In this document: in pieces, positions 1 through 6,987 of the stretch
Numbering within the stretch: position 1 is the first letter of the stretch
Layout of the letters: each line of letters starts with the position of its first letter
DNA from: Microcystis aeruginosa NIES-2549
Lineage (GTDB): Bacteria > Cyanobacteriota > Cyanobacteriia > Cyanobacteriales > Microcystaceae
Length of the DNA stretch: 6,987 nucleotides
Reading direction: 5' to 3'
Assembly (NCBI RefSeq): GCF_000981785.2
Contig: NZ_CP026286.1
Coordinates: forward strand, 1-6,987
The notes under the pieces: model-generated
What the model saw: only the letters and a program-made list of their open reading frames with translations
Told to the model about the DNA's origin: nothing
Database searches by the model: none
Translations under genes and position numbers: made by a program

Positions 1-215
1 GGTGACAAAGGTGACTCGCTATTAAGTAAGTTGTCACCTTTTAAGTTTTCCGTACTGGACGGGTGATTCTCACTCAGTGGGTTAGTAGTTTTTACAGCAA
101 AGTGATTTTTTGAGTCACCTTTGTCACCTTTTAAATTAAAATCCTTATCTGGTAAGGGTTCTAGTGGGGTGACTATGCTGTCACCTTTAGTCACCTTTGA
201 GTCACCTTTGTCACC
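1..215. repeat. GGTGAC/GTCACC(TTT) hexamer-nonamer array, left part (10 exact copies).
   Basis: GGTGAC at 1, 10 and 168. GTCACC at 33, 114, 123, 180, 190, 201 and 210. The run 180/190/201/210 is four tandem GTCACCTTT units spaced 9-11 bp. Inverted-repeat pairs: AAAGGTGAC (7-15) with GTCACCTTT (33-41), and GGTGAC-tatgct-GTCACC (168-185). Confidence 0.9.
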
Positions 216-689
216 TTTTAAGGTTTTGAACTCGATCGAGCGAGAGGTTTTCCTGACTTCCCCGTAACCTTGATCAGCCAATTCCTTGAATATTTCAGCT
301 ATTCGGGTAGTAGGGAAGTCTTGACGGGTTTTGGTGTTAAAAGCCTTTTTCCGTGCGTTATTAGGGCTAATCCAATCGGTAGCTACCGATAGCAGCCTTG
401 CATAGGTGCTAGGTAAGTCATCCGATAACTTCCCATACATCCCCCTCACTTGATTAATAAAAAAGCTTACTAACTCAATAGCCGCGTTAACGATTTCCTT
501 ACCAATCTCTATCGATGGTGTAATACCGTGAAATAGGGAGTTAATGAGATGAAGGTTTAAAGCCAAGCGTCCGATCAGCCCTCTCGCTTTAATTAGCACA
601 TTTCTCATTGCCGGGCGCTGTTCACCATCGGCTAATGATTTAAGTCTGTTAGCAGCCTTAAGGAATCCGTGCCGGTCTCGATAAATCAT
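1..689 (-). CDS. C-terminal continuation of the primase-helicase (DUF3987-type C-terminal region plus KGD-repeat tail). It is in the +1 frame relative to 658..2697 and is partial, running off the left edge.
   Basis: Hand translation of the minus strand (codons 689-687, 686-684 ... 5-3) gives MIYRDRHGFLKAANRLKSLADGEQRPAMRNVLIKARGLIGRLALNLHLINSLFHGITPSIEIGKEIVNAAIELVSFFINQVRGMYGKLSDDLPSTYARLLSVATDWISPNNARKKAFNTKTRQDFPTTRIAEIFKELADQGYGEVRKTSRSIEFKTLKGDKGDSKVTKGDSIVTPLEPLPDKDFNLKGDKGDSKNHFAVKTTNPLSENHPSSTENLKGDNLLNSESPLS. There is no stop in these 229 codons. The frame is open from 731 and the first ATG is at 689. It is absent from the supplied ORF track, presumably because it has no stop inside the window. 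Confidence 0.6.
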   Translation of the reverse strand, partial: MIYRDRHGFLKAANRLKSLADGEQRPAMRNVLIKARGLIGRLALNLHLINSLFHGITPSIEIGKEIVNAAIELVSFFINQVRGMYGKLSDDLPSTYARLLSVATDWISPNNARKKAFNTKTRQDFPTTRIAEIFKELADQGYGEVRKTSRSIEFKTLKGDKGDSKVTKGDSIVTPLEPLPDKDFNLKGDKGDSKNHFAVKTTNPLSENHPSSTENLKGDNLLNSESPLS

Positions 690-2613
690 AAGTAGCCACT
701 GGCAAGCGATCGAAATGTCGATATAAATCTGTCAGCATCGGTGTTAAATCCGGGTAAGCCGCGTCAATATCAAGATCAAGGGTTGAGGGGGGAAGCTGAC
801 AAAAAATGAATCGCGCCCATTGGCCGCTGCTATCTTCCTTATCGCCTAACAGTTTCTCTAGCACCCCGGGTTGAATCGTGCCATAAATGCTTAAAAGAAT
901 TTTCCGACATACTAACGTTTTGTCGGGGTCGGCCCGGAGTGTAATCGGTGGGGTCCCATCAAAATATTCTAGAATGTCCTCGCTGTCAGACCCACGGCCT
1001 CCCCGGTACTGGTTAGCACTCTTGAATAAACCGGCGATTTCATCTCGGAAAAGTAACATCCCCTTATCTTGGCTATTAGCTGCATAACGCGCTATCCCCT
1101 CACCAGTTCCCCCGCTAAAATACCTGATCCGCCGGGTAGGTTTGGTCGGTGGTCCATCGGGGAATGAATCGCTTAAATCATCTTTGTTCTTTGATTTTTT
1201 GAGCATCTCATAGTTGGCTAGAGAGGACTTATGCTCACTTAGCTTCGCTTCATAGTCCTGATCATCCAATTCGATTAGTGACTTAAGAGGATCGGCAATC
1301 ATGGCACGGCCGATAATGCTTTTTCCTTCCCCCGATAACGCGACTATGGCTGCGTACAAGTTGGGGGGAACCTTCCAGTTGGTTTGAGGGTATAGGCTTA
1401 AGGCAGTGTCCGGGTGAAGGGTTGATGATAAGCCACTGAGTAACGCGGTTAAATAAGCCTCACCCCTCAATCCTGTTAGTCTGGCATGGTGATTAATAGC
1501 GTTAGCTAATTTTTCAGGGAGTACCTTAGTAAGATCAAGCCGTTGGCTGTCAGCTTTTAGGATATTTTCGAGGTCGCTGTAAAGGTCATCCTTGTCAAGG
1601 TTTTGGTCATTTTCTTGTAACCTCTCTTTATATATAGAGGTTACTTGCTGTTGTGTTAGATTGAATTCCCTTGCAATCGAAGCGAGTTTTATTTCACGAT
1701 TGGAACCGGTGAGGTTCTCAGTTATCAGACTATCGATAACTTCCCCTAGTTTGTCGGTTTCGAGTGGTTTAGGGTTGAATTTGGGATGACTGACTACATT
1801 GTTAGGTTTATCCGTTTTTTGCGGTTTAAGAGGCTTTTTCTCACCGATTCCCTTGATAATGTCTTCTTTGTTGGCCCCTTCATCTATCCAATCTTTCAGA
1901 TCAGCCCCCCTTGATTCTGGCAAGTGGTTCCATAAGGGGGAATCTGGGAAACAGTAAAGCCATTGGGCATTGGGGAAGTCCTTAGCTATAGCCTCGCAGT
2001 GTTTCAAGCCGGGAACATCTCGATCCGGACATAAAATCACGCTGGCCCCTTCTAAGTCTTTACTATCTGTCTCTCGCCATTTTCCCGAACCGGCTAGGTT
2101 ACAGGTTGCCGGCAGTCCCAATGACCATAGAAGATCGGCCTTACCCTCACCCTCAACGATAAAAATACTTTCCCCGTTGGCGATCGCTTGCTTGACTCCC
2201 TTGTATCGATAAATAGGTATATTTTCCCGCTTAATTTCGCCTAACCCCTTAACCCATTGTTTACCGTCCCAATGCTGCTGATAAAAGTCTTTTTTGCCGT
2301 TACCGTCATCTTTTCTTACTACTCTGATTAAGGGATTACCATCGCGATCAGGATAGTAATAATGGGTAGTTTTAGCCGGGCGTGGGGGTTTAGCCCATGT
2401 TTCCTTTTCCTTAATAGGCGCGTAATAGGAGTGACCTTCACTATCGGCCCCATCGGTTTTATACCATCCCGGTGCGGGTTCATGGTTACGCTTGCATACT
2501 GATAAATCGCCGATCGAGTAACACCAGTCAGGTTTCCCACAGTGGGGGCATGGGTTATCTTTGGTGACAGTGACTAGACTTTTCCCGTTGGTTTCGCTAT
2601 ACTTGCTGTACAT
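658..2613 (-). CDS. Replication protein: N-terminal zinc finger, Toprim (DnaG-like) primase and DUF3987-type helicase/NTPase, ended by a stop at 658-660. The track ORF starts at 2697; the ATG at 2613 is preferred.
   Basis: Zn motif: CPHCGKPDWCYSIGDLSVCKR. Toprim: IFIVEGEGKADLL ... ILCPDRDVPGLKH (conserved E and DxD). DUF3987-like: LPEKLANAI..., Walker-A-like ALSGEGKS, LLFRDEIAGLF...YFDG. The ATG at 2611-2613 is preceded by TAAGGAcattactaca, an AAGGA Shine-Dalgarno that overlaps the stop of the upstream ORF. The 2697 start would overlap that ORF by 71 nt and would translate through a terminator hairpin. Confidence 0.9.
   Translation of the reverse strand: MYSKYSETNGKSLVTVTKDNPCPHCGKPDWCYSIGDLSVCKRNHEPAPGWYKTDGADSEGHSYYAPIKEKETWAKPPRPAKTTHYYYPDRDGNPLIRVVRKDDGNGKKDFYQQHWDGKQWVKGLGEIKRENIPIYRYKGVKQAIANGESIFIVEGEGKADLLWSLGLPATCNLAGSGKWRETDSKDLEGASVILCPDRDVPGLKHCEAIAKDFPNAQWLYCFPDSPLWNHLPESRGADLKDWIDEGANKEDIIKGIGEKKPLKPQKTDKPNNVVSHPKFNPKPLETDKLGEVIDSLITENLTGSNREIKLASIAREFNLTQQQVTSIYKERLQENDQNLDKDDLYSDLENILKADSQRLDLTKVLPEKLANAINHHARLTGLRGEAYLTALLSGLSSTLHPDTALSLYPQTNWKVPPNLYAAIVALSGEGKSIIGRAMIADPLKSLIELDDQDYEAKLSEHKSSLANYEMLKKSKNKDDLSDSFPDGPPTKPTRRIRYFSGGTGEGIARYAANSQDKGMLLFRDEIAGLFKSANQYRGGRGSDSEDILEYFDGTPPITLRADPDKTLVCRKILLSIYGTIQPGVLEKLLGDKEDSSGQWARFIFCQLPPSTLDLDIDAAYPDLTPMLTDLYRHFDRLPVATYDLSRPARIP
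2575..2603 (+). promoter_or_regulatory. Candidate sigma70-type promoter (TAGACT-N17-TATACT) that could drive a ~70-nt RNA antisense to the rep start.
   Basis: TAGACT lies at 2575-2580 and TATACT at 2598-2603, with a 17-nt spacer. The terminator hairpin begins about 40 nt downstream of the predicted start site. This rests on motif matching only. Confidence 0.3.
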
Positions 2614-2626
2614 TGTAGTAATGTCC

Positions 2627-3064
2627 TTAATTTTCAAAAAGTACGAAACCACAGCGATCGTTAGTCGCTGTGGTTTTTTGGTTGTTTTGAGAGGCATTGC
2701 CGGGGATACCGACGGTATCCCCCCGATACAGATTTAAAGCGGCGATCGCATCCTGATCAAGATGCCCGGCACCTTCTAAAATTTCTAAGGCTTTTGTTAA
2801 TTCCCCTTGGGCGATCGAGCGCCTCAACCCGTCCGGTCTTTTCTTTTTATGAGTGAGTTTTGCGAAGATTCCACAGTCCCGGCACTGATAGAGAGACCTA
2901 ATCGGGCCAGACTCGATTAATTCCCCTAAATTTTCGCACCTAGGGCATTTTACCGATGATTCTAGATTGTGATATGATTTATCACAATGACCATCGATTG
3001 ATAAATCTTTTTTGTCGGTTGAGCAAACTTGATGAAGTTTGCTAAAGTTTGATAGATTGTACAT
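2627..3064 (-). CDS. Zinc-ribbon protein of unknown function, first gene of the rep transcription unit.
   Basis: 145-aa ORF with an ATG start. It has CPRC...(17 aa)...CRDC plus upstream C/H residues (CSTD, HCDKSYH). Its last ~17 codons are encoded by the 2646-2676 hairpin. Its TAA stop lies 13 nt before the rep ATG at 2613. Confidence 0.6.
   Translation of the reverse strand: MYNLSNFSKLHQVCSTDKKDLSIDGHCDKSYHNLESSVKCPRCENLGELIESGPIRSLYQCRDCGIFAKLTHKKKRPDGLRRSIAQGELTKALEILEGAGHLDQDAIAALNLYRGDTVGIPGNASQNNQKTTATNDRCGFVLFEN
2646..2689 (+). terminator. Strong stem-loop with a T-run on the plus strand (an intrinsic terminator facing into the rep leader). It is weaker but also terminator-like on the minus strand.
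   Basis: aaaccacagcga (2646-2657) pairs perfectly with tcgctgtggttt (2665-2676), with a 7-nt loop tcgttag. On the plus strand it is followed by ttttttggttgtttt. On the minus strand the stem is followed by tttcgtacttttt. Confidence 0.65.
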
Positions 3065-3201
3065 AAGTTTATGAATTTGTTTTCCCAGGAACGCTAGTAA
3101 CGTTATCTGGGGATTTTTATATTTTATACTAACCGTATGGGAAAAGTTTATAAGTGCAAAATCCCTGCTATGGTAGTTTGATCATAAAGGGATTCCTATC
3201 A

Positions 3202-3232
3202 AGTCAAAACCGCAATTGTTTCGGTTTTGACT
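3202..3232. repeat. Perfect 11-bp-stem inverted repeat in the intergenic region upstream of the rep unit.
   Basis: agtcaaaaccg (3202-3212) and cggttttgact (3222-3232) are separated by a 9-nt loop. No T-run follows on either strand, so it is not a canonical terminator. Confidence 0.8.
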
Positions 3233-3276
3233 GATACTTGATAACTGATAACCGTTAACTGGAATTAACCGCTAAG

Positions 3277-3501
3277 TTAGTCGCTAAACTCGTTATCGAA
3301 TAACTCCCTTAGCACTTCATTTGCTCGGTTTTGAAACCTTTTAGCCTTTTCCTCGTTGCCAAACTTTGCTACGGGTAGGGCTAAAAAGCCCAAAAACCCC
3401 TGTTTAAACTGCCATTCAACGTCATACAATCGATCGCCATTTTTGTTTTGGGTAAAGTACCGTGTATCAGTCAGAATTGCCGCAATTTCGTGTTTTTCCA
3501 T
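3277..3501 (-). CDS. Small hypothetical protein (74 aa from the ATG at 3501; the track ORF begins at a TTG at 3540).
   Basis: AGGAG sits 7 nt upstream of the ATG at 3499-3501 (minus strand reads aggagtaaaaagATG). The TTG-extended version would be translated from the intercistronic hairpin. The sequence MEKHEIAAILTDTRYFTQNKNGDRLYDVEWQFKQGF... matches no family I recognise. Confidence 0.5.
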   Translation of the reverse strand: MEKHEIAAILTDTRYFTQNKNGDRLYDVEWQFKQGFLGFLALPVAKFGNEEKAKRFQNRANEVLRELFDNEFSD

Positions 3502-3519
3502 CTTTTTACTCCTGTTTAG

Positions 3520-3538
3520 GAGGGGAATTAATCCCCTC
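3520..3538 (-). other. Intercistronic 7-bp-stem hairpin between the 169-aa and 74-aa genes.
   Basis: gagggga-attaa-tcccctc lies in the 44-nt gap between the stop at 3546 and the start at 3501. Confidence 0.6.
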
Positions 3539-3545
3539 AATAGTG

Positions 3546-4055
3546 TTAGATGTTGAATCGCTTCTGAGTAGCGATAAACAAGCTTGTAGCGACTTGCCGG
3601 CGATCATCCGGGGTAATATTCTCTACCCGTTGGTCAACGGTTTTTAAGCAGAAATTGAACAGATCAGCCATATCCCCAACATATTGCGCGATTTCTCGCT
3701 TCTGATTAGGCGATAAGGTTGATTGGTCATTTTGGGAAGGTTTCTCGCTGGTTTCCTCGATTTTATGGTTAAAATTGTGAACGGGTTTTACCGGAACCGG
3801 TTCCACTGGTAGGGGTTGACCTAAACTGACTAAATTAGGGTCTTCTACTAGCGAATATTTACCCTTATTGTCAAGGGTTAAGGTCAAGCGAGCGTTCTTA
3901 ATCACATACTTTTGAGAGTAATCATCGTCACCACCGCGCCACACGGTCACTTTTTCCCCGTTATCACGTCTTACCGCGTCAATTACGGTTCTCTCGCCGT
4001 ATTTAGTGTTAACGCGCCGGGCGCGGTCTGTGGCCATTGCTTCGATTAGTTGCAT
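3546..4055 (-). CDS. Hypothetical protein with a possible N-terminal OB-fold-like domain, a Pro-rich linker and a helical C-terminal domain.
   Basis: 169-aa ORF with an ATG start; AAGGA lies 13 nt upstream. The N-terminus RARRVNTKYGERTVIDAVRRDNGEKVTVWRGGDD...ARLTLTLDNKGKYSLVE has the alternating beta pattern typical of OB folds. This is by eye only; no family is recognised. Confidence 0.55.
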   Translation of the reverse strand: MQLIEAMATDRARRVNTKYGERTVIDAVRRDNGEKVTVWRGGDDDYSQKYVIKNARLTLTLDNKGKYSLVEDPNLVSLGQPLPVEPVPVKPVHNFNHKIEETSEKPSQNDQSTLSPNQKREIAQYVGDMADLFNFCLKTVDQRVENITPDDRRQVATSLFIATQKRFNI

Positions 4056-4139
4056 AATAGAGATATCCTTTTTGGATGTTAGGCGATCGCTTTTTGATTG
4101 GAAGTCTGGGAGCGGTCGCTTTTGGTTTATATGTATATA

Positions 4140-4288
4140 TTATCCGATACTCTATCAGATTGCAATACCTATGCGATTAAACTATCTGATAAGTAAACGA
4201 TAATAATATCAGATATTCTAATAGGATATTTATCGGAGTTAGTGATAGTATGAATGTAAACCCGATAATATATCTGATATAGTTATTT
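4140..4288. promoter_or_regulatory. AT-rich divergent promoter/operator region with four TATC-N-GAT(A) pseudo-palindromes and GATAAT(A)ATATC boxes.
   Basis: CTATCAGAT at 4152-4160, CTATCTGAT at 4182-4190, ATATCAGATAT at 4206-4216, and ATATCTGATAT at 4270-4280 (the reverse complement of the third site). GATAATAATATCA at 4199-4211 and GATAATATATC at 4264-4274. The region lies between the divergent starts at 4055 (-) and 4289 (+). Confidence 0.6.
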
Positions 4289-4600
4289 ATGCCTAAAATT
4301 AACGATAACGTTGTCCGGGTTGACTTCCGGTGTCCGATCGCAATTTACCAAGCGATCGAGAAATTAGCAGAGGAAAATGGGCAGCCGATCCACCACATAA
4401 GTGGAAAAGTACAGATAAGCAGTACCATCATTGACTTATTAAAAACAGGGTTAGCAATTCACGCCCCGGACTCCCTACCCCAATCGAATGGGGGGAATTT
4501 AGCCGATAAGCTATCAGAAAAAATCGATGACGCGATCGAGGCTAAAATGAACGCGGCGATCGCTTCCCTTCGCGCTGAATTACTAACACCTAACACCTAA
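4289..4600 (+). CDS. Ribbon-helix-helix (CopG/Arc/MetJ-like) DNA-binding protein with a C-terminal helical tail.
   Basis: VVRVDFRCPIAIYQAIEKLAEENG...ISSTIIDLLKTGL fits a beta-strand, helix, helix layout. The gene sits next to palindromic operators and is followed by a terminator. Confidence 0.6.
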   Translation: MPKINDNVVRVDFRCPIAIYQAIEKLAEENGQPIHHISGKVQISSTIIDLLKTGLAIHAPDSLPQSNGGNLADKLSEKIDDAIEAKMNAAIASLRAELLTPNT

Positions 4601-4613
4601 CCCTTAATCTCCT

Positions 4614-4641
4614 ACCCGTGAAGTGAACCCCACGGGTTTTT
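4614..4641 (+). terminator. Rho-independent terminator after the RHH gene.
   Basis: acccgtg (4614-4620) pairs with cacgggt (4631-4637), with a 10-nt loop, and runs into ttttt (4637-4641). Confidence 0.6.
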
Positions 4642-4677
4642 AAGCGTCGGTCACTTGGTAATTCTGAAACTTTACCA

Positions 4678-5226
4678 ATGAAGCGCGATCGCAACGGACA
4701 AGCCAAAATCCTTACTGACAGCGAAGTATCAGCTATATTTAGCCTTTTAAGTGCTAGAGATAGGGCTATTTTCGCTATCTGTCTTTATGGCGCGTGTAGA
4801 ATCTCTGAGGCCTTGTCGATTAGAGCGGGGGATATAGCCAATGGCGTAATCATTCTCAGGAAAAATTCGACTAAAGGAAAAAAGGGAACGCGATCGCTAC
4901 CTATTTCTCCCAATCTCGAAAAAATTCTCAATGATTACATCGACTCGATCGCTTTCCCCGGTGACTTCCTTTTTCCCGGTAGGGACGGCACTAAACCCTT
5001 AACCACTGCCTACGCTGATCTGGTATTAAGGGAATCTTGCCAAAAATTGGGACTTAAGGGTATATCGACTCACTCATTCCGTAGGACCGCGTTAACCCGT
5101 ATGCACTTAGCAGGGGTCCCACTGCGAACTATTCAGCGAATTAGTGGGCATTCATCCCTAGCGGCCCTATCGGTTTATCTGGAAGTGAGTAACCAAAACC
5201 TTATCGATGCTGTGGGATTGATTTAA
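4678..5226 (+). CDS. Tyrosine recombinase (phage-integrase family), catalytic domain only (182 aa).
   Basis: Catalytic residues are readable: R in GACRISEAL, K in STKGKKGTRSLPI, HxxR in THSFRRT, then GHSSLAALSVYLE (H...Y). An in-frame TGA at 4624 rules out a longer N-terminus, so there is no core-binding domain. Confidence 0.88.
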   Translation: MKRDRNGQAKILTDSEVSAIFSLLSARDRAIFAICLYGACRISEALSIRAGDIANGVIILRKNSTKGKKGTRSLPISPNLEKILNDYIDSIAFPGDFLFPGRDGTKPLTTAYADLVLRESCQKLGLKGISTHSFRRTALTRMHLAGVPLRTIQRISGHSSLAALSVYLEVSNQNLIDAVGLI

Positions 5227-5259
5227 TGCGATCAAGTGCCAATTCTCAAAGTGTCACAG

Positions 5260-5315
5260 TTAGATGGTTACATCTAAACTAATTAGATGATAATAATATC
5301 ATCCAAGATTAGATG
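5260..5315. promoter_or_regulatory. Upstream region of the 288-aa gene, with TTAGATG boxes and two inverted repeats.
   Basis: TTAGATG-gtta-CATCTAA at 5260-5277. TTAGATG at 5283-5289 and 5309-5315. GATGATA-ataa-TATCATC at 5287-5304, which contains the shared box GATAATAATATCA (5289-5301). Confidence 0.6.
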
Positions 5316-5638
5316 AGATGCAATGAGTAAAGTAATTTCATTTTCAATCAGCGATCGCTATCTCGATAAGCTTCGCTCCCTGTACCCAGCGCTGACTGAC
5401 AATCTGGCAGTCAAGCAATTTGTCACGGACGGGTTAGATTCACGCTTAGGCAATAGCTTAGATGGTAGCTTAGATGACGGGTTAGATGATAGGGTTAAAA
5501 CCCTTATAGAATCATGGGTAGATGGTTTATTAGAAGTGAGGTTAGATGCTTCTGTGGGAAAGTTGATCACTTCCTTGAGTGAGAGAATGGCAAGGCTAGA
5601 GGCAAGATTAGATGATAATTTAGATGGTAGTTTAGATG
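5260..5638 (+). repeat. TTAGATG heptamer array: 10 direct exact copies plus 1 inverted copy, with degenerate copies as well.
   Basis: Exact plus-strand copies start at 5260, 5283, 5309, 5458, 5470, 5482, 5542, 5608, 5620 and 5632. The inverted copy is at 5271-5277. Variants: TTAGATT 5434, GTAGATG 5518, TTAGAAG 5529. Two triplets of copies show 12-bp spacing. Confidence 0.9.
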
Positions 5639-6189
5639 ATATGGAAAGACTGCTAAGGTTACAGCGAGAGGCTTCGATCGCTTCCCCCCTTCCCCCTTCC
5701 CCTTCCCCTTCCCTTCCCCCCGATGAACCGGTTCAACCGGCTATCAGTGAACCGGATCAACCGGCGATCGAGGACTCGGAAAAAAAGATTGTGGACTCGC
5801 TAGATACTTTAATCGGTTCCCCAATCGGAATAGATGAGTCTGGTAGTGAACCGGACACGGACGCGATCGAATCCTTGACCAGTGAATCTGACTCATCTAT
5901 TGAGGGTGAGGACGCGATCGAAACCGTCACCCCGGAAGTTTCACCGTCACCACCGGACCAACCGGCGATCGGAACCGTTCCGGGTGACTCAATTGACACG
6001 GAACCGGATAAGGGCATGAATCCCAATCAAGCCCATGAGTACCTAATATCTAAGGGGATAAAAGATATTAGCTATTACTATCTGAATAAATGGGCTAAAG
6101 ATAAAGAAGGGCTGATACCATGGCGGGGCAAAAATGCGCGAAAACACCTAACACTGAAAGACGGCCTTTACTTCCCCACAACCGATTAA
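5323..6189 (+). CDS. Modular acidic protein: RHH-like N-terminus, LD(G/D) repeat region, Pro/Ser linker, acidic repeats and a small basic C-terminal domain.
   Basis: The N-terminus KVISFSISDRYLDKLRSLYP resembles an RHH strand plus helix. Repeats: SLDGSLDDGLDD and RLDDNLDGSLDD. Linker: PLPPSPSPSLPP. PDQPAI occurs twice (a third, EPVQPAI, is degenerate) and DAIE(S/T)(L/V)T occurs twice. C-terminus: NQAHEYLISKGIKDISYYYLNKWAKDKEGLIPWRGKNARKH. The low-complexity content lowers confidence in the exact product. Confidence 0.6.
   Translation: MSKVISFSISDRYLDKLRSLYPALTDNLAVKQFVTDGLDSRLGNSLDGSLDDGLDDRVKTLIESWVDGLLEVRLDASVGKLITSLSERMARLEARLDDNLDGSLDDMERLLRLQREASIASPLPPSPSPSLPPDEPVQPAISEPDQPAIEDSEKKIVDSLDTLIGSPIGIDESGSEPDTDAIESLTSESDSSIEGEDAIETVTPEVSPSPPDQPAIGTVPGDSIDTEPDKGMNPNQAHEYLISKGIKDISYYYLNKWAKDKEGLIPWRGKNARKHLTLKDGLYFPTTD
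5681..5721 (+). repeat. 41-nt uninterrupted polypyrimidine (C/T only) tract inside the 288-aa CDS.
   Basis: cttccccccttcccccttccccttccccttcccttcccccc, encoding SPLPPSPSPSLPP. Confidence 0.9.
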
Positions 6190-6201
6190 CCCTAGCCTGA
6201 C

Positions 6202-6423
6202 ATGACTGAGTACACCTATAAGGATTACAAGCCCTATTTTGTGAAACGTCCCAAAAAACCCGGCTATTTCACCCTTAGAGAAATCAGAGCCATGGCAGTT
6301 CCGGGGTGGCCGCAATCGATCGAAGGCCTGAGAAAAAAAGCACTTAGGGAGGGTTGGCCCCGGTTGGGGCGCCGTCCGTCTAAAGGGGGAGCCTTTGAGT
6401 ACCGTGCCGGGTTGCCCGATTAA
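6202..6423 (+). CDS. Stand-alone Mu-type winged-helix DNA-binding domain protein (similar to the MuA / Mu repressor N-terminal domain).
   Basis: YFTLREIRAMAVPGWPQSIEGLRKKALREGWPRLGRRPSKGGAFEYRAGLP aligns by eye with MuA residues ~4-53 (WVSPKECANLPGLPKTSAGVIYVAKKQGWQNRTRAGVKGGKAIEYNANSLP). Shared positions are PG.P.S..G....A...GW....R...KGG...EY....LP. Confidence 0.65.
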   Translation: MTEYTYKDYKPYFVKRPKKPGYFTLREIRAMAVPGWPQSIEGLRKKALREGWPRLGRRPSKGGAFEYRAGLPD

Positions 6424-6540
6424 CTGAAACCCTTACCCTGATTGGGTTAGGAGAATAAAGTAGGTTCTTTTTTGGACCTTTCGATCGCCCCTCTCAATGG
6501 CGCGTCATCTCGCTAGGGACAAAAAAAATTACACCTTGTT

Positions 6541-6556
6541 GTTGTTATATAACAAC
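6541..6556. repeat. Perfect 16-bp palindrome in the convergent intergenic region.
   Basis: GTTGTTATATAACAAC is its own reverse complement. It is preceded by an A8 tract (6521-6528) and extra GTT units. Confidence 0.9.
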
Positions 6557-6573
6557 TATGAAACACTTCCCAC

Positions 6574-6621
6574 GGGAAAAATGCCCAAAAATACGCAAAA
6601 ATTGCGGTTTTGGGTTTTGGG
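6574..6621. repeat. Three tandem 10-bp units carrying phased A5 tracts, followed by T4 tracts. They also fold as a compound hairpin, which could be the minus-strand terminator for the 6651 ORF.
   Basis: gggaaaaatg / cccaaaaata / cgcaaaaatt place A5 at 6577, 6587 and 6597. T4 lies at 6608 and 6615. cccaaaa (6584-6590) pairs with ttttggg (6615-6621), and cgcaa (6594-6598) pairs with ttgcg (6602-6606). Confidence 0.7.
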
Positions 6622-6650
6622 GGGATTAGGTTTTAGCTAGGCGATCGCTA

Positions 6651-6987
6651 TTAGGCTTTTTTCTTTTTCTCGCGCTTGGGGCCGGGAGTGTCCGGCGTGA
6701 CTTCATCTAAGGCAACCGTAAAGGGGGGATTTTCCTGATACCAATCTTGGATGGTGATTAAATCACCATCGACACTAATCACCCCATGGGCGCGGCCATT
6801 TTTGTTGTAAATACACTCACCCCCCGGTTTAAGGCTGTCAGTGTCACTTACCGGGCGATCGGAGTCGGTTTCATCATGGGGTGACTCAAGGGTGACTGGG
6901 GTGACTAAGGGTGACTGAGTATTTTCAGGGTAGTCACCTTTTGTAAAGCCTTGCTGTGATTGAGTTTCACTATCTAAAGGTGACTGG
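6651..6987 (-). CDS. 3' part of a minus-strand ORF entering from the right edge: a repeat-rich linker, a small beta-rich C-terminal domain and a Lys tail. It is probably the distal end of the Rep tail if the molecule is circular.
   Basis: Hand translation gives ...QSPLDSETQSQQGFTKGDYPENTQSPLVTPVTLESPHDETDSDRPVSDTDSLKPGGECIYNKNGRAHGVISVDGDLITIQDWYQENPPFTVALDEVTPDTPGPKREKKKKA, with the stop TAA at 6651-6653. It is open to position 6987 and is not in the supplied track. Confidence 0.65.
   Translation of the reverse strand, partial: QSPLDSETQSQQGFTKGDYPENTQSPLVTPVTLESPHDETDSDRPVSDTDSLKPGGECIYNKNGRAHGVISVDGDLITIQDWYQENPPFTVALDEVTPDTPGPKREKKKKA
6880..6987. repeat. GGTGAC/GTCACC array, right part (6 exact copies).
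   Basis: GGTGAC at 6880, 6891, 6900, 6910 and 6979. GTCACC at 6933. The 10-bp inverted repeat AGTCACCTTT (6932-6941) pairs with AAAGGTGACT (6976-6985). Confidence 0.9.

Follow-up and report, generated by a model that had tools for sequence, protein, structure and literature searches.

What kind of molecule is the 6987-bp contig NZ_CP026286.1 of Microcystis aeruginosa NIES-2549, and where on it would replication begin? The window, by which we mean this whole stretch of DNA (6987 bp, 45% G+C), opens with ggtgacaaaggtgac... and closes with ...aaaggtgactgg, and both ends lie within one replication gene, here called rep, on the minus strand. The window's own Rep fragment (P0056) is recorded on a contig of 6987 bp, and the window is therefore the entire contig; comparison of its ends found no terminal overlap. 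The initial annotation of the sequence had proposed a complete circle of 6987 bp. That proposal is supported by the finding of a single gene at both ends, by homologous proteins, by the DNA of relatives that runs over the joint and by relatives that are themselves circular. The best explanation of the whole, which we hold to be very probable, is a complete circular plasmid of ~7 kb that was opened inside the 3' part of rep, whose ends join exactly and which would carry an origin cassette within rep. The contig is thereby settled as a finished small plasmid and not a fragment. Its description as a 'replicon' needs care, as rep carries a 5-nt deletion and frameshift at 667/668. The parts of rep lie in the window as follows:

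658-2613, minus strand: N-terminal frame of rep, 651 amino acids (aa) from the ATG at 2611-2613 to a premature stop at 658-660
663-672, minus strand: site at which rep has lost 5 nt (between window bases 667 and 668), a deletion that 10 of 10 aligned relatives lack
1-731, minus strand: second frame of rep, upstream of the joint; end of the DUF3987 domain, a winged-helix-like domain (~225-425) and the first half of a repeat-coded linker
6651-6987, minus strand: second frame of rep, downstream of the joint; second half of the linker, a small beta-rich C-terminal domain and a KKKKA tail

When base 6987 is set next to base 1, minus-strand bases 2, 1 and 6987 form the codon CCC (Pro), and the joined frame runs without a stop for 355 codons, from 731 through 1|6987 to 6654, ahead of the stop codon at 6651-6653. 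The translation across the joint reads ...NLLNSESPLSPQSPLDSETQ... The 15-mer GGTGACTGGGGTGAC, present at 6891, has a second copy that spans the joint from 6979, and the spacing of the motif GGTGAC is continued, with starts at 6880, 6891, 6900 and 6910 (11, 9 and 10 bp apart) as against 6979, 1 and 10 (9 and 9 bp apart). The in-frame join, the open frame, the repeated 15-mer and the regular spacing had all been pointed out in the initial annotation, and each was reproduced. An in-frame join alone is a 1-in-3 event, and repeats in 9-bp units or higher-order repeats of 87/90 bp would keep the frame too. The decisive support for closure is therefore comparative.

The Pfam DUF3987 profile is matched at its positions 8-261 in the open reading frame (ORF) at 658-2697 (minus strand) and at 292-363 in the joint-spanning frame. 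Both ends thus belong to one gene, and the frame that crosses the joint is its C-terminal third. Repair of the frameshift and joining of the ends give a conceptual Rep of 982 aa with the joint at residue 871. About 60 uninterrupted proteins of 960-1000 aa, from Microcystis and Dolichospermum metagenome bins, are homologous to the joined protein with 66-83% identity and 99-100% coverage. At the nucleotide level (blastn), the related contigs L082-L085 align as single pieces of >3 kb with 77-82% identity, from window position 2682 through 1|6987 to ~6200-6650, and a base-by-base alignment of the four made with MAFFT contains no indel at the joint. Translated comparison (tblastx) shows that window ~1 adjoins ~6984 in ten more relatives, among them L086, L087, L090-L094, L096 and L097, which brings the metagenome contigs that cross the joint to fourteen. 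The joint falls between copies 2 and 3 of a conserved, reverse-oriented repeat triple coding ESPLSPxSP, and this triple is kept without gain or loss of a copy in L082, L083, L084, L085, L088, L089 and L090. A warning had been attached to the proposed circle, namely that repeats at the joint might have been collapsed during assembly; within the reach of sequence comparison, the same three-copy cluster in these seven relatives answers it. No topology but a circle makes sense, because the ends of a linear piece cannot rebuild one gene with a family-typical structure, and a tandem multimer is formally equivalent to it.

Four members of the family are closed by direct overlaps of their own termini, of 130 nt in L088, 200 nt in L090, 114 nt in L096 and 121 nt in L097, and form circles of 6944, 8435, 7557 and 9378 bp, respectively. 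When the window is rotated and laid against the 6944-bp circle of L088, gene order and orientation are identical all the way round. The opening point of L096 lies downstream of rep, unlike that of the window. No terminal overlaps were found in L084-L087, L089 and L091, and joining L082 end to end produced a chimeric ORF and no real gene, so that this contig is considered incomplete. A tblastn search of the Rep C-terminal tail against the loci of more distant relatives found nothing significant, and those loci could not test the joint.

The molecule is an ordinary new member of a little-studied family of cyanobacterial plasmids, a family of freshwater cyanobacterial metagenomes whose bins name Microcystis and Dolichospermum. 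Its best match by Rep among the curated plasmids of PLSDB is pOSC7112.05, a complete circular plasmid of 7645 bp, with 41% identity, and megablast of the whole window against PLSDB gave no match. Exact-protein look-ups of the recombinase described below and of the rep N-terminal ORF returned no identical record. A scan of genome contigs found Rep relatives of at most 44% identity over full length, with short N-terminal stretches of up to 65%; IMG/VR held no close relatives (~30% identity over most of Rep, short N-terminal stretches of up to 49%), and phage records gave only partial Rep matches below 40% identity. A literature search for DUF3987 plasmid Reps in cyanobacteria found nothing relevant. 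The result is a family of 7-9-kb plasmids from bloom-forming cyanobacteria that has no nucleotide-level counterpart in PLSDB and whose Rep has <60% identity to anything there.

Two other accounts of the molecule have to be weighed against a free-standing plasmid. Contigs of 20-36 kb (L094 and L126-L128) carry the same rep family, split there into 877 and 132 aa, beside a 1143-aa gene of the DUF3854 (CyRepA-like) type and transposases; their cargo includes genes for MatE, a methyltransferase, an RTX protein and a tryptophan halogenase, and they look like larger plasmids or cointegrates with two replication genes. The 6987-bp unit might likewise be a module of such an element, or of a tandem multimer, that the assembler closed through its repeats, as the joint does lie in a repeat array, where misjoining can happen. 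This is nevertheless very improbable: the window ends rebuild the exact gene structure of the relatives down to the repeat copy number, the gene order is that of the independently closed 6944-bp circle, and four members of the family close at 6.9-9.4 kb. Only a shade less improbable is the excised circle of an integrative element, such as a phage satellite resembling P4. A primase-helicase, a tyrosine recombinase and small helix-turn-helix regulators do resemble the gene set of a satellite, and two distant Rep relatives (P0074 and P0077, ~42-43% identical) are found on chromosome-sized contigs of ~6 Mb. Chromosomal flanks or a tRNA gene are, however, seen beside no close member of the family, and the window itself contains no tRNA genes and has no match in Rfam. 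The recombinase consists of a catalytic domain only and is replaced by an unrelated one in relatives, and searches of Pfam and PHROG recognized no capsid or packaging genes among the window ORFs. With no close relatives in IMG/VR or among phages either, a phage or satellite origin was rejected in favour of a plasmid.

The rep gene is a single gene for a multi-domain initiator of the primase-helicase type, ~980 aa long. A CxxC zinc ribbon, a putative Toprim-like primase and the greater part of the DUF3987 P-loop helicase are found in its N-terminal frame, and the homologues begin with MYxDYSETNGK. The helicase matches DUF3987 in Pfam (E = 2.5e-30) and a PHROG 'DNA helicase' family (E = 5e-17), and residues 78-283 match PHROG primase families (E = 6e-13 and 4e-12), the PHROG matches having been obtained with the homologue P0003. 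There is also a partial match to NCBIfam PRK07078 and a weak Toprim match in the PDB (E = 0.2); Pfam Toprim was matched by no window ORF. PDB sequence searches gave no useful match, and no window ORF matched a family of the HUH-type Rep nucleases of rolling-circle plasmids. An AlphaFold2 model of P0003 has a helix-helix-helix-hairpin at 735-800, with a predicted local distance difference test score (pLDDT) of 72-81, no structure at residues 801-929 (pLDDT ~24) and a small beta domain at 930-977 (pLDDT 73-81). The predicted layout of the C-terminal part of Rep is thus a winged-helix-like domain, a ~125-aa linker predicted to be disordered and a small beta domain. Many Rep homologues (P0002, P0005, P0010 and others) are named 'CRISPR-associated protein Cmr3' or 'ribonuclease M5' in one source. 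The Cmr3 name looks like a mis-annotation, and the M5 name probably reflects the Toprim-like domain.

In this copy the initiator gene is present but split. On the rep-sense strand the window reads CCGGCACG^GATTCC at the deletion site, and relatives have five additional bases, approximately GGGAA (e.g. CCGGCACGGGAAAAATTTC). The site is not a homopolymer. The deletion leaves a 651-aa product, ended by the premature stop, and an out-of-frame remainder. Either the five bases were lost in assembly, or the mutation is real and this copy is defective; the plasmid could then persist only where a helper of matching iteron type supplies Rep. A programmed +1 frameshift, which would make the break no defect at all, is barely credible. 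The first frame does end in CCT TAA G, and the +1 frame carries on with sequence homologous to the relatives; all 10 aligned relatives, however, have the five additional bases and one uninterrupted ORF, and no stimulatory element was seen near CCT-TAA-G. The 5-nt deletion is the simplest reading, and the programmed frameshift was rejected in its favour.

The part of rep around the joint is densely filled with one short motif. GGTGAC/GTCACC occurs 22 times in the window against 1.8 expected (12-fold), with a maximum of 6 in 200 shuffles, and 16 of the 22 copies lie within ~320 bp (6880-6987 plus 1-215):

6880-6987, no strand assigned: right part of an iteron-like array, with GGTGAC (plus strand) at 6880, 6891, 6900, 6910 and 6979 and GTCACC at 6933
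1-215, no strand assigned: left part of the array, with GGTGAC at 1, 10 and 168 and GTCACC at 33, 114, 123, 180, 190, 201 and 210

Perfect 17-nt inverted repeats link 1-17, 112-128 and 199-215. Read in the sense of rep, the copies of the array stand in conserved clusters, 8 of them forward ((A)AAGGTGAC, which codes K-G-D) and 8 reverse (GTCACC, which codes S-P or V-T). This layout, with both orientations, recurs in sister plasmids and is built there from other hexamers, so that three motif types can be told apart: GGTGAC (A), GGGGAT (B) and GTTGAC (C). Type B, GGGGAT(A)/ATCCCC, is found in L084, L089 and, as judged from 7-mer counts over the whole contig, L091, and still codes K-G-D and S-P. 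Type C, G(G)TTGAC/GTCAAC, is found in L097, where the residues become K-V-D, S-T and V-N.

The codons used within the motifs are fixed. All 34 Gly codons of type A are GGT, a codon with a share of 33% elsewhere in rep, and all 24 Ser codons are TCA (17% elsewhere); in type B, all 14 Gly codons are GGG (24% elsewhere) and all 16 Ser codons are TCC (11% elsewhere). It lessens the weight of these counts that they are pooled over related, non-independent sequences, each of which singly gives Gly 6/6 or 7/7. As synonymous codons are fixed in both orientations, the constraint lies on the DNA and the protein sequence follows from it. The GGTGAC copies are thus constrained as DNA, not as protein.

The type of array goes together with one part of Rep. 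Among 38 aligned Reps (13 type A, 22 type B and 3 type C), distances between types are about equal to those within types at residues 1-745 and 919-989 (ratio ~1), and the ratio climbs to 2-4 only at residues ~745-918, the winged helix and linker. Columns that separate the types include 762, 765-767 and 770 (TKTRQDFPTTR versus GKTKTEYPSAR), and on the model of P0003 these discriminating residues occupy the loop before the third helix and the start of that helix. The third helix is the usual recognition helix of winged-helix domains. Distant relatives, pOSC7112.05 among them, have variable sequence in the same loop-helix region and hexamer arrays of their own (GTGGAC, GTAGTC, GGGGAC, GAGGAC and others) in the equivalent place, in the 3' part of rep just past the winged-helix region (L001, which is pOSC7112.05, at 6887-7101, and L002, L006, L010 and L013). 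As these distant plasmids with DUF3987-type Reps have arrays of their own, the arrangement is family-wide. Motif diversity extends from three types in the close family to at least five further hexamers in plasmids of Oscillatoria, Microcoleus and Tychonema.

The cluster of short repeats in rep most likely forms the replication origin. In the mechanism that we propose, the GGTGAC hexamers would be iterons bound by the winged helix of Rep itself, and the origin would lie inside rep, as it does in the O gene of phage lambda. Like the alpha protein of phage P4, Rep would both load its own helicase and act as the primase for DNA synthesis. Winged helix and iterons together would make up an exchangeable specificity cassette, which probably sets plasmid incompatibility.

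Several known systems can be set beside the plasmid. One is pOSC7112.05 of Oscillatoria nigro-viridis PCC 7112 (NC_019732.1, 7645 bp, circular), like the window a small circular plasmid, together with other plasmids of cyanobacteria that have DUF3987-type Reps. The Reps of pOSC7112.05 and the window share their general layout, with 41% identity over residues 7-796, and 13 of the 15 copies of the hexamer of pOSC7112.05, GTGGAC/GTCCAC, lie in the 3' part of rep. pOSC7112.05 differs from the window in iteron sequence and in the C-terminal domain of Rep. Its remaining genes are annotated only as hypothetical, and the comparison of the two plasmids covers Rep and its array. In lambda, the origin iterons lie inside the coding sequence of the initiator and add residues to the protein (PMC7466680). 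Lambda O and the window rep are alike in that a binding domain and its iterons stand together within the initiator gene, although the proteins have no sequence homology. The lambda iterons are 19-bp direct repeats beside an AT-rich tract, whereas those of the window are 6-bp cores in both orientations with no adjacent AT tract. Lambda O itself contains neither primase nor helicase and relies on P and DnaB, which it recruits.

Phage P4 alpha unites a primase, a helicase and a C-terminal winged-helix origin-binding domain in one polypeptide, and its short iterons occur in both orientations. The window Rep would likewise combine primase-like, helicase and winged-helix-like parts in one chain. No sequence similarity to P4 alpha was detected in the PDB searches, and the window helicase is of the DUF3987 type. 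The ori and crr sites of P4 are not known to be coded within the linker of alpha itself. CyRepA1 and CyRepA2, of the Synechocystis plasmids pSYSA and pCC5.2, have an N-terminal Toprim-related domain and a C-terminal helicase domain and are defined by DUF3854 plus DEXDc (PMC10079941). The window Rep resembles them as a cyanobacterial plasmid initiator with a putative Toprim-related N-terminal part and a helicase domain. Unlike them, it matches DUF3987, and neither rep frame matches DUF3854 or DEXDc in Pfam. In the larger contigs L094 and L126, the DUF3854 (CyRepA-type) and DUF3987-type Reps occur as separate genes side by side.

Several points weigh against a closed plasmid with its origin inside rep. 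Closure is argued from sequence logic and from relatives, and binding of the repeats by Rep is inferred. The AlphaFold2 model of P0003 is poor overall (mean pLDDT 49), and the co-segregation of winged helix and iteron type could partly reflect simple physical linkage. With rep frameshifted, autonomous replication of this copy is uncertain. Forward and reverse copies are interspersed, in contrast to the direct repeats of classic iterons; the array contains no AT-rich unwinding tract, the nearest AT-rich 40-mer lying ~320 bp off at 6524-6563, and a search of the window found no DnaA box. An initiator that loads its own helicase may need neither element.

The lack of an adjoining AT-rich tract or DnaA box also speaks for repeats that are not an origin at all. 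They might be repeats of the protein, KGD and SP in a linker, and these residues are indeed kept in both type A and type B; or they might be DNA sites that serve something else, for instance copy-number control or partition. The presence of a second, separate array in another gene (see below) fits this as well. A DNA role of this sort, such as handcuffing between plasmid copies, may still apply. Taken together, these non-origin accounts are unlikely. Selection on the protein alone cannot explain synonymous codons that are fixed and switch together in both orientations, nor the type C residues KVD, ST and VN, and a protein-only account was rejected on these grounds. The link between array type and the winged helix of the initiator also speaks against the non-origin accounts. 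The proposal of an origin within rep can be put in a general form: DUF3987-Rep plasmids of cyanobacteria would carry the origin in the part of rep that codes the disordered linker, and the recognition region of the winged helix plus the 6-bp iterons would be a swappable cassette that recombines independently of the remaining Rep and sets compatibility groups. To this combined statement, with all its parts, we give about an even chance of being right.

Should it hold, near-identical plasmids could share one host, the amino acid sequence of the linker would be a mere consequence of selection on DNA, and the 288-aa ORF described below, with TTAGATG arrays in the window and ATAGAC arrays in relatives, would be a second gene of the same design. 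The concerted change of iterons through synonymous codons offers a clean natural case of selection on DNA overriding codon choice. Compatible shuttle vectors might be designed around a mapped minimal replicon, consisting of rep with its internal iterons, and its naturally orthogonal specificity types, a use that is relevant as Microcystis and its relatives are hard to manipulate genetically.

The AT-rich tract at 6524-6563 (78% AT), which contains the palindrome GTTGTTATATAACAAC, follows the rep stop codon at a distance of ~90 bp; no other candidate unwinding element or terminator lies closer.

The remaining features of the plasmid are these:

2627-3064, minus strand: 145-aa ORF with a CxxC...CxxC zinc ribbon (weak Zn_ribbon match)
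2645-2677, no strand assigned: two-way terminator-like hairpin, a 14-pair stem with T runs on both strands
3277-3540, minus strand: 87-aa ORF with no assigned function; a similar stretch in some relatives
3546-4055, minus strand: 169-aa ORF with no assigned function; a 162-176-aa gene or a tblastx match at the same place in most relatives
4141-4279, no strand assigned: AT-rich stretch (GC 0.30) that separates the divergent genes for the 169-aa and 103-aa proteins and contains four palindromic TATCNGATA sites plus a half-site
4289-4600, plus strand: 103-aa ORF whose N-terminus resembles a ribbon-helix-helix fold, as judged from sequence only
4678-5226, plus strand: 182-aa tyrosine recombinase, catalytic domain only (Phage_integrase, E = 1.5e-24, profile positions 3-170 of 172)
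5260-5640, no strand assigned: second repeat array, TTAGATG, with 4 copies upstream of the 288-aa ORF and 7 inside its 5' half (coding L-D-x)
5323-6189, plus strand: 288-aa ORF; L-D-x repeats at the N-terminus, then a proline-rich middle and a possible helix-turn-helix in the C-terminal part
6202-6423, plus strand: 73-aa Mu-type helix-turn-helix protein (HTH_Tnp_Mu_1, E = 3.9e-5), directly downstream of rep in relatives

The N-terminal 77 aa of the 145-aa ORF are conserved in relatives, in which the gene is about half as long (76-81 aa). The hairpin at 2645-2677 overlaps the 3' end of this ORF and stands between it and the rep start (2613). The region of the 87-aa ORF is matched in L090, where 218-496 corresponds to window 3201-3479 (tblastx). 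In the gap between the divergent genes, 9 of the 10 hits of ATCNGATA, counted on both strands of the window against 1.2 expected, fall within 4141-4279, and the TATCNGATA sites there are probably an operator or a partition site. The 103-aa ORF next to them had no family match in searches of Pfam, NCBIfam and PHROG.

The recombinase lacks the N-terminal core-binding domain. Its R, H-x-x-R and Y motifs are visible by eye, and Xer-type models are matched below their curated cut-offs; it probably resolves plasmid multimers. A gene of equal length is present in the circular L088, and in L086 and L126 a distantly related one of 319 aa (31% identity over 80 aa) takes the same position.

TTAGATG has 13 copies in the window against 0.9 expected. 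At the equivalent places L085-L088 have (G)ATAGAC(A), which codes I-D-x, and the array is probably a set of binding sites embedded in coding sequence that serves as an operator or for partition. In L094, a 273-aa ORF overlapping the tblastx match to the 288-aa gene matches HTH_23 and HTH_28 weakly, with scores under the curated cut-offs. The proline-rich, low-complexity middle of the 288-aa protein is coded at 5681-5770 by CCCCTT repeats and by tandem repeats of 24 nt. Eight copies of the palindrome GCGATCGC, known as HIP1 and typical of cyanobacteria, are found in the window.

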